From Vicugna vicugna (taxonomy: Eukaryota): a DNA stretch of 64,000 nucleotides. Below the pieces are notes generated by a model, which was not told where the DNA came from, searched no databases, and worked only from the letters and a program-made list of their open reading frames with translations. This document shows positions 60,592 to 63,495 of the stretch, piece by piece (position 1 is the stretch's first letter; each line of letters opens with the position of its first letter). Location: positions 1,116,001-1,180,000 of the forward strand of contig MU057701.1 of NCBI GenBank assembly GCA_013265495.1. The letters are read 5' to 3'. The translations under genes were made by a program, and so were the position numbers.

Positions 60592-60697
60592 CTCTCAAAA
60601 GAAACTCTTTTCCATGATGATCTGGATTCTTTAGTACTTTCTGGCTCTTCCAAAGGTTCTCCTTGATAGGTTTCTTTAAAACTCTGTCCAGTTTCAC
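60592..60697 (-). CDS. CEP95: CEP95 coding exon (~exon 5)
   Basis: aacag|GT GAA ACT...GAG AG|gtagc, 106 nt; (S)[34 protein letters not shown]. Confidence 0.91.
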
Positions 60698-63384
60698 CTG
60701 TTCAGAACAGATTAAAAACAACACAAAGGAAACCTCAAGTTAATGCAACTGTTTCTCTACAGGGGGTGGCCAGAGGGAAGGACAGTAAAGTACCCTCAAC
60801 CTTTTCCTGGTAAACTGGGCTCTTGTGAAAGTAAAATTAAGAACCAAATCATTACCTGCAATGAGCATGTACTAGCTGGATAACAAAGAAGCAACATAAG
60901 TATTGCTTTAAAAGCAGCGTCTACAGTTGTATTAGTAGTGTTTTATTTTTTTAAGCTAGGTGATAGGTTCATTTATTACTTTTTAAACCTCTTTACCTGT
61001 AAGGGATGTTTGAGGCAAGATGACTAGGGCGTGGCTTAGAAAAACATGACTGTGTTAGCCTACCTCAAGCTCCAAGACAATCTTGCCCTAGCCTCAGAGT
61101 GAGACCACATCAAGACGTGGATGAAATTTTCCTTAAGACTATCACTCTACTTTCTACCCTAATATACTTGAGAAATACACTTTCACAGCGTCTGTAATGC
61201 ACTAGGGGAGTGATATGTGGGTGAAACCTCCTACAATTCAGATCGATCCACTGGATTTCCATCCCACTTCTAGGGATTTCCTGTTTAAGCATCCACCTTC
61301 ACTTTTTTCTATTTCTATATTCACCAAGCAATATTTTAACATTAATCAATATTCACTGTGTATTTACTCTGGGCTAGGCTCAGTACTAAACTATTTATAT
61401 GTATCTACTTACTCAACCTTCATTACAACCGTGAGAAAATTTCAGAGGAGAAAACTGAGGCTTAGAGAGCTTCAGCCATACAGTGAGGGACAAAACTCGG
61501 TTACACAGTGAGGGGCAGCAACTGGCCCACAGTCGGCCTTCTAATCCCTTGCTCTTAAGTGGTAAATGATAATGCTAGCTCAGGTACCAGGAAGAAACTG
61601 CATACCTGACATGACTAGTGGTAATAAAGATTTATTTCCCATTACTAACTGGCATTTTGAAGATTCTGGTCAACTCTAGGTAAATACTGCTATAGAAACC
61701 TGGACCTGCAAAGGTGAATATCAGATTTTAGAAAACATTATCCACTATGGTACTACCACATAGGGAGCCCCCATCTGGGCAACTCCCTACAAGCAGCACT
61801 AAGCTTAGCACATACTACTGACCTCCCCCTGCGAAGGTCCCCTCCCTGAGCATTTCATCATCCCCAGCTCACTTGTAAATACCTCTCAGGTCTGTCCTCC
61901 TCCCTCCATTTCCATTGCCCATCATCCCTCCCTACCTGAGGTCAACCACTACACTGTAAAAACCGCCTCTGTCATTAGAGCACTTCAAATTAATCTCTTA
62001 CAGGTGGTTTTCTTCCTCCTACTCTTGGCTGCTAAAATGATTAAAAAGTCACAGCGCATCGAAATATCTACTGGAAGCCTTGAATTAGGTGAGTTTTACA
62101 TGTCATTCCCCGCCCTCCTTTTCCTACAATGTTTTTATTCTATTTACTTATGGCAGTCTCCCTGACTTGAGTTTAGATTCCTTTAAGAGCCATAAACATG
62201 GCATGCAGCTTTGACTCTTCCCAGAGTACCTATGTTGGTATTTAATATATATTAAACACTCAAAACTCAAAAAGTTTTTGAAACAGAAAAAGAAATATCC
62301 AGTGTGGCAAGCCTTTCAATCTTTCCTTCCAGGACTTACCTCTGTAAGCTTTTAAATCTTTTCAGCAACAAAGATAAAAGTTAGAAAACTATCTCTGACT
62401 AAAAAGTTTAAGATTAATTTCAGACATTATAATCACAGCATAGATCTCACCATCAACAATACAAGAATTAGGAATGACAAGCCTAGCCCAATTTTTTTTT
62501 TGTCTTCATTTGTATTAGAATTTATATTAACTGCTATTGCTACTGAAAACTTGTTTTGGATAATTTTACAATAATAGCAAACCAATTCTCAAATGGGTCA
62601 TATATTATTCCAACCATGATATACAGTGTTATTTACCTGACCAATCAAAAATTAAGACATATAGGATTTTTAAAATTTTTGCAATACGATAAATAGCATT
62701 GCATGAAGACCTTCAAGCATCTAACTTTTTTTGGTATTACTTCCTTTGAACAAATCCCTAGAAATTGGATTAATGGAGCCAAAGATTATGAATAGCTCTG
62801 ATACACTGCTGATCCAGTTTAAATACCACAACTCTTTTGGAAAATAATACGGCCATAATAATCGTTAAATTATCATAAAAAACATAAACTCAAAATTTCA
62901 CACAATAAACTATTACAACCTGGGGAACTGAGTTACTTAAGGAGTAAAATAAAAAATATCCAGGATGTCACAAACCTAAGTGTAGGCTGAAGACAGAAAC
63001 AAACCAACTCTTCTTGCTGATGCCTCTGTACTATTCAAATTTGTAACAGAAATGGCAGTTCTAATATAGGAAATTCTGAAGTAAGTAATTTCATGTAATA
63101 GGACAACAAGCAATTTTAGCCAGAATTTAGCTTTCTATTATAGATTAGCTTTAAAGTAATTTACAAGCAACTTCCAAATTGACATAGGACATGATGACAG
63201 TCTAGGAGAGAGTTTTCAAGCACATGGAACATGGAGAACTGAAATTTACTTTACAATAAAATGTATTAGATATACTGTATTAGTGATGCTAATTCTTATG
63301 AATAAAAATAGTCAAAAGGATAAAAGGCAAAAAGGGACATAACATAGACTATAAACCAAACCAAATTTTTATTCTTAAACTTAC

Positions 63385-63495
63385 TTTTCTCGTGAGATGT
63401 TTCACTGATGTGTTCTGTAAGATACTCCAGCAACCCATCAAATATTTCTAGAAGATTCTTAATAGATTCTTTATCTCCTTTCACTATATTTTCTC
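63385..63495 (-). CDS. CEP95: CEP95 coding exon (~exon 4); earlier exons lie outside the window
   Basis: ttcag|GA GAA AAT...AAA A|gtaag, 111 nt; (G)[36 protein letters not shown]. Confidence 0.95.

Follow-up and report, generated by a model that had tools for sequence, protein, structure and literature searches.

A probable cryptic, microexon-like 18-nt site in intron 4 of vicuña CEP95

Introduction

Microexons that depend on SRRM3/4 are 3-27 nt long, mostly in multiples of three and free of stops. Among them, 74-79% carry a UGC between the branch point and the AG, and a bipartite UCU_CUC enhancer has been described upstream of that UGC (10.1101/2024.09.17.613571, in the portions of that source covered here). 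The same portions describe a class of cryptic microexons in VastDB, with or without the UGC, whose PSI is below 10 in more than 90% of samples. Retina microexons (RetMICs) are enriched in cilia genes and for downstream UAG (Musashi) motifs, and 84% of the human ones are conserved in mouse, according to the parts of PMC9303857 available to us. Short exons are easily missed by standard aligners, as noted in the covered part of PMC7821500.

The original prediction, made from the letters of a 64,000-nt stretch of the vicuña (Vicugna vicugna) genome (the window), proposed a neural or photoreceptor-type microexon of 18 nt in the intron between exons 4 and 5 of CEP95. Here we compare this locus with the described systems and weigh the readings that its sequence permits. 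The signals at the site are confirmed, and we consider it probable that they form a cryptic site which is mostly skipped.

Results

Host gene and splice signals

The window is mammalian DNA. An exon of 63 residues, at 50052-49864, matches alpaca and camel CEP95 with 100% identity. With alpaca CEP95 as the query, a tblastn search of the window plus the neighbouring 20 kb of contig placed the gene on the minus strand, with exons 1-3 past the end of the window. The identical exon and the tblastn placement show that the host gene and the exon numbers 4 and 5 had been assigned correctly. Intron 4 is 2,687 nt long and, as predicted, in phase 1; exon 4 ends in that phase. The features of the site and its flanks are as follows.

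63385..63495, minus strand: CEP95 exon 4, 111 nt, upstream flank (tblastn, alpaca residues 112-150; splice sites)
62380..62386, minus strand: putative branch point, consensus-like TTCTAAC with its branch A at 62381 (-24) and CTAAC at -27 (sequence)
62368..62379, minus strand: short pyrimidine-rich tract, 10/12 pyrimidines (sequence)
62365..62367, minus strand: UGC at -10..-8, the position class used by SRRM3/4; putative binding motif (sequence)
62358..62364, minus strand: weak purine-rich acceptor, last bases AAG (sequence)
62340..62357, minus strand: candidate microexon, 18 nt (frame test)
62340..62348, minus strand: candidate 9-nt form via an internal AAG (frame test)
62334..62339, minus strand: strong donor GTAAGT (GAG/GTAAGT) (sequence)
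60592..60697, minus strand: CEP95 exon 5, 106 nt, downstream flank (tblastn, residues 151-185)

The branch point, tract, UGC, AAG acceptor, 18-nt length and donor all lie where the original prediction had put them, and the sequence signals at the site are real as described. Their likeness to SRRM3/4 microexons agrees with the description in the covered portions of 10.1101/2024.09.17.613571. Splice-site strength was judged by consensus matching; the candidate acceptor reads AAG, whereas the ten annotated CEP95 acceptors compared read CAG or TAG. No other AG occurs in the zone from -33 to -2, and further upstream there are AGs at -33, -37, -39 and -43. The 18-nt form would change the junction to HEK-NLKAYRG-ET. 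The internal AAG does yield the 9-nt in-frame variant that had been foreseen (HEK-TYRG-ET), and neither form contains a stop. An origin from a young repeat is unsupported: positions 62200-62600 were found once in the genome, in a search that passes over common words.

Gene models and other exons of intron 4

We next consider the 457 mammalian CEP95 proteins listed: the exon-4 anchor is present in 369 and missing from 88. The set consists of redundant gene models whose tissue support is unstated; it includes at most 15 members per cluster and no human protein. Exon 4 is joined directly to exon 5 in 347 of the 369 (4 assigned by eye). The rest comprise 14 proteins in which exon 5 is skipped, one with a late entry into exon 5, five from colugo with one added residue and two Nile rat isoforms with ten. 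A 6- or 3-residue insert at this junction was found in 0 of the 369 listed proteins; none of the 18 camelid proteins has it, and neither do the fetched models of pig, cattle, sheep, goat, deer and whale.

Other small additions to this junction or intron do appear in the models. In Nile rat isoforms X2 and X1 (P0581, P0583), 10 residues (30 nt) are inserted in frame between exons 4 and 5; the remaining rodents fetched lack this insert, and nothing in the camelid intron matches it significantly. Homology with the candidate was rejected, as the site shows 10/27 mismatches and the best match in shuffled introns averages 7.5; the insert may represent a separate small-exon birth in CEP95 intron 4. 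Camelid positions 61697-61638 (minus strand) are homologous to an exon in three big-cat isoforms (P0171, P0176, P0177), with 12/15 residues identical, and otter P0072 starts with the same six residues; the big-cat exon itself maps to 61697-61641. The camelid sequence has GG in place of the expected donor GT, so the big-cat exon looks carnivore-specific. Alternative N-termini of seal and otter proteins did not map to intron 4. In colugo (P0592-P0596) the one added residue at the junction probably comes from a tandem acceptor three bases upstream.

Microexon catalogues, literature and read searches

A search for CEP95 or CCDC45 in all 18 supplement files of PMC9303857 gave 0 matches, while CEP290 and CC2D2A were found; these retina lists are from human, mouse, chicken and zebrafish, and camelids are not covered. 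Among the 2,987 mouse microexons in eight supplement files of PMC7821500, the part of that source covered, no plus-strand entry lies at chr11:106 Mb and control entries are present at 103, 105 and 107 Mb. The position and strand of mouse Cep95 were taken from a row of PMC8797185, the same assembly being assumed. That row, the sole one for Cep95 among the 3,642 mouse exons in the covered tables of PMC8797185, describes a 133-nt exon of the SRRM3/4-sensitive class (MmuEX0009784, chr11:106814604-106814736, table S2). There was no CEP95 match in 11 of 20 supplement files of PMC8355340, nor in the covered main text of 10.1101/2024.09.17.613571, whose tables could list a CEP95 event. Full-text searches of the published literature returned nothing joining CEP95 with a microexon, and none of the CEP95/CCDC45 literature on exon, splicing or centrosome was evidently about the candidate. 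The statement that the exon is not catalogued is valid for these sources; human catalogues were partly covered and VastDB lies outside them.

Among 24 public runs listed, most of them without a stated tissue, those of RNA type have 0.41-0.48 of their words in common with the 3.2-kb stretch as a whole, a figure that is uninformative on the junction. In the search for the orthologous intron, peptide patterns of exons 4 and 5 scanned against metagenomes returned 367 stretches with 0 confirmed, and a 17-base pattern returned 66 loci, none aligned past 38 bases, which we regard as chance matches. The stop-free frame on the opposite strand across the site, used in a protein search, yielded 0 of 9 candidates. 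These negatives are weak because the searched collections seldom contain mammalian DNA.

Rarity of the signal set

On both strands of 284 kb of the contig there are 145 in-frame pairs of an AG and a strong donor, 24 of them with an upstream UGC. The candidate is the sole site with a tract, a branch point and an AG-free zone as well, so that the full signal set occurs once against 0.125-0.25 expected from eight shuffles, at thresholds chosen after the candidate had been seen.

Across the 2.03 Gb of the genome, matches to tract-UGC-(4 to 7 nt)-AG-(3 to 27 nt)-G/GTAAGT numbered 34, 44, 34 and 32 for spacings of 4, 5, 6 and 7 nt, a sum of 144, these counts possibly being lower bounds. Multiples of three make up 47 of the 144, against 36% by chance (P = 0.82); if 85% of real microexons keep the frame, real ones would account for at most ~8% of the matches. 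Replacing UGC by UGG at the candidate's spacing gave 48 matches compared with 44, hence no UGC excess. When the tract was relaxed and a CTRAC branch point required, there were 13 UGC and 19 UGG matches; three of the 13 are multiples of three (by eye), the candidate among them. When the strict tract and the CTRAC branch point were both required, 2 of the 44 UGC matches were left, versus 1 of the 48 in the UGG control. A reversed-pattern control (44 vs 12) was discarded as evidence because the reversed TGC makes CpG, which is depleted in mammals.

The looser architecture thus shows no sign of selection over its 144 matches, and with neither frame bias nor UGC excess genome-wide, the motif alone proves little. 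The genome-wide counts take in intergenic and antisense sites, while the candidate lies in an intron on the sense strand and keeps the frame without a stop. Because of these properties and the rarity of the strict set, we would put the candidate's chances from anatomy alone at roughly even or better, a figure that is estimated and not computed. The other matches among the 44 that look most like real microexons have long clean tracts and enclose 6 nt (G000:C3818:2583541-2583574 and C4763:23835-23868), 9 nt (C5010:726896-726932), 21 nt (C8532:578342-578390) and 15 nt (C9396:7271388-7271430).

Candidate regulatory motifs

One further element lies downstream of the candidate donor:

62202..62207, minus strand: TGCATG, 133 nt downstream of the donor (sequence; presumed RBFOX-type role)

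This is the sole sense-strand copy in the intron. The chance of at least one TGCATG within 200 nt is ~5.5%, and several motif types were looked for. We take the motif to be an RBFOX element, and such elements downstream of an exon enhance its inclusion. Upstream, a check for the bipartite enhancer found TCT at -28 and -17 and no CTC in 100 nt. Downstream, there is no UAG in the first 100 nt; the first TAG is at +108 and there are four in 300 nt, about the background rate.

Protein context

In an AlphaFold model (48 homologues), mean pLDDT is 66 and exceeds 90 over residues of about 31-140. The N-terminal domain is modelled as helical, with its last helix reaching residue 149 and followed by a low-confidence linker of more than 200 residues. 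Exon 4 codes the final helix (121-149 in the model) and exon 5 begins the linker, with pLDDT below 50 from residue 153. Foldseek relates the domain to the calponin-homology domains of spectrin, alpha-actinin, NAV2 and parvin (best E 2e-4), and Pfam assigns part of it to DUF5745; the N-terminus carrying this label (window 63495 and upstream contig, residues about 32-149) adopts a calponin-homology fold in the model. The 48 aligned homologues show no conservation of the linker. The insert would add six residues directly after the domain, at the modelled order-disorder boundary, a position that may fit a modulating microexon and a tolerated neutral one equally.

Discussion

Taken together, these data suggest that the 18-nt site is probably a cryptic, mostly skipped microexon-like site, or pseudo-exon. 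Drift could have lined up the branch point, tract, UGC, AG and strong donor in an intron that is A/T-rich and weakly constrained. In ordinary cells, 18 nt and an AAG acceptor would be too short and too weak for exon definition, and exon 4 would be spliced straight onto exon 5. Where SRRM3/4 are abundant, inclusion may leak at a few percent, and such leakage would be tolerated because the frame is kept and the insert falls at the start of a disordered linker. Both the skipping in camelid neurons and the origin by drift are what we infer. In support of this, the insert is in none of the 369 listed proteins, the 18 camelid ones included, from gene models that do record other lineage-specific exons of intron 4 in Nile rat and big cats. 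Further, the mouse and retina catalogues searched gave no match where controls were found, the genome-wide look-alikes are biased neither in frame nor towards UGC, the linker is unconserved across the 48 homologues, and UGC-bearing cryptic microexons are a recognised class in the covered portions of 10.1101/2024.09.17.613571. Against a cryptic site stand the rarity of the full signal set (one in 284 kb; 2/44 with a CTRAC branch point), a sense-strand, in-frame, stop-free placement directly after the domain's final helix, and the intron's single TGCATG 133 nt downstream, where the chance of one within 200 nt is ~5.5%. Short exons also escape standard aligners, according to the covered part of PMC7821500, and the human protein is not in the set.

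It is possible, although we think it unlikely, that the site is instead a young SRRM3/4-dependent microexon restricted to camelids or ungulates. SRRM3/4 at the UGC between tract and AG would then promote early spliceosome assembly in neurons or endocrine cells, RBFOX on the downstream UGCAUG would assist inclusion, and NLKAYRG in place of S after the calponin-homology domain could tune cytoskeletal or partner contacts. Just as tentatively, such a recent SRRM3/4 and RBFOX exon would, in neurons or photoreceptors, extend the C-terminal edge of this CEP95 domain by a basic patch of six residues. The anatomy is complete (branch point, tract, UGC, weak AG, strong donor and a length of 3n) and rare, TGCATG follows downstream, the insert sits at the order-disorder boundary, and intron 4 has yielded new exons in other lineages. 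However, the insert is in none of the 18 camelid proteins, nor in the fetched models of pig, cattle, sheep, goat, deer and whale, the 100 nt upstream hold no CTC enhancer half, and the genome-wide look-alikes show neither frame nor UGC bias.

It is very unlikely that the site is a neural or photoreceptor microexon conserved among mammals and overlooked by annotation. Such an exon would have the same anatomy, retina microexons are enriched in cilia genes (PMC9303857, covered parts) and human catalogues were covered in part. However, mouse conserves 84% of the human retina microexons in that source, yet mouse Cep95 has no entry among the 2,987 microexons of the covered PMC7821500 files; no microexon for it appears in the covered mouse SRRM3/4 and neural tables of PMC8797185 or in the four-species retina lists, and 0 of the 369 listed mammalian proteins has the insert. 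The indirect evidence leans against a conserved exon of either tissue type. Photoreceptor inclusion is the weakest part of the tissue-specific prediction, because CEP95 is not in the four-species retina lists and no UAG lies within 100 nt downstream.

Splicing generally favours the first AG after the branch point in the choice of a 3' splice site. That the splice sites serve another event is hardly credible. Such an event could be the in-frame 9-nt form offered by the internal AAG, or a longer cryptic or poison exon that starts at one of the AGs at -33, -37, -39 and -43 and has its 3' end at the candidate donor. Frame-changing exons of intron 4 do exist in other species, but a 3-residue insert is in 0 of the 369 listed proteins, the upstream AGs lie above the branch point with no evident tract of their own, and the first AG after the branch point is at -2, so the internal AAG should lose out.

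If the site is silent, it is ordinary, one of well over a hundred look-alikes in a 2-Gb genome, and the genome-wide counts mean that such anatomy by itself cannot call a microexon. If it is included in neurons, it would be one addition to a much-studied class, in a centrosome protein that has received little study, and its value would be mainly evolutionary. Neural microexons are known to be deeply conserved. A young exon that mouse lacks, arising where exons have been born repeatedly, would thus be a test case for exon origin: the birth of a neural microexon caught in progress, beside independent exon births in rodents and cats in the same intron.

Compared with known systems, the candidate shares with the neural and endocrine SRRM3/4 microexons (3-27 nt; 10.1101/2024.09.17.613571 and PMC8797185, in the parts covered) its length, frame and strong 5' splice site, as well as a weak AG from which the branch point and tract are set apart, with a UGC between them. 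It differs in having no CTC enhancer half and, in the covered mouse tables, no Cep95 microexon. With the RetMICs described in the covered parts of PMC9303857, such as those in CEP290 and CC2D2A, it has in common a centrosome- or cilium-type host, an upstream UGC and a short in-frame insert, but CEP95 is not in those four-species lists and the first 100 nt downstream contain no UAG. The Nile rat exon shares the intron, the junction and the preserved frame, and the big-cat exon shares the intron, but both differ from the candidate in sequence. Like the cryptic microexons of VastDB, the candidate has microexon-like signals and is absent from standard gene models; those exons have been seen in RNA at a low level, whereas the candidate is known here from sequence alone. 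By its anatomy it appears to resemble an SRRM3/4 target, a likeness that does not assign it to that class, and under any of these readings it belongs to a known class of element.
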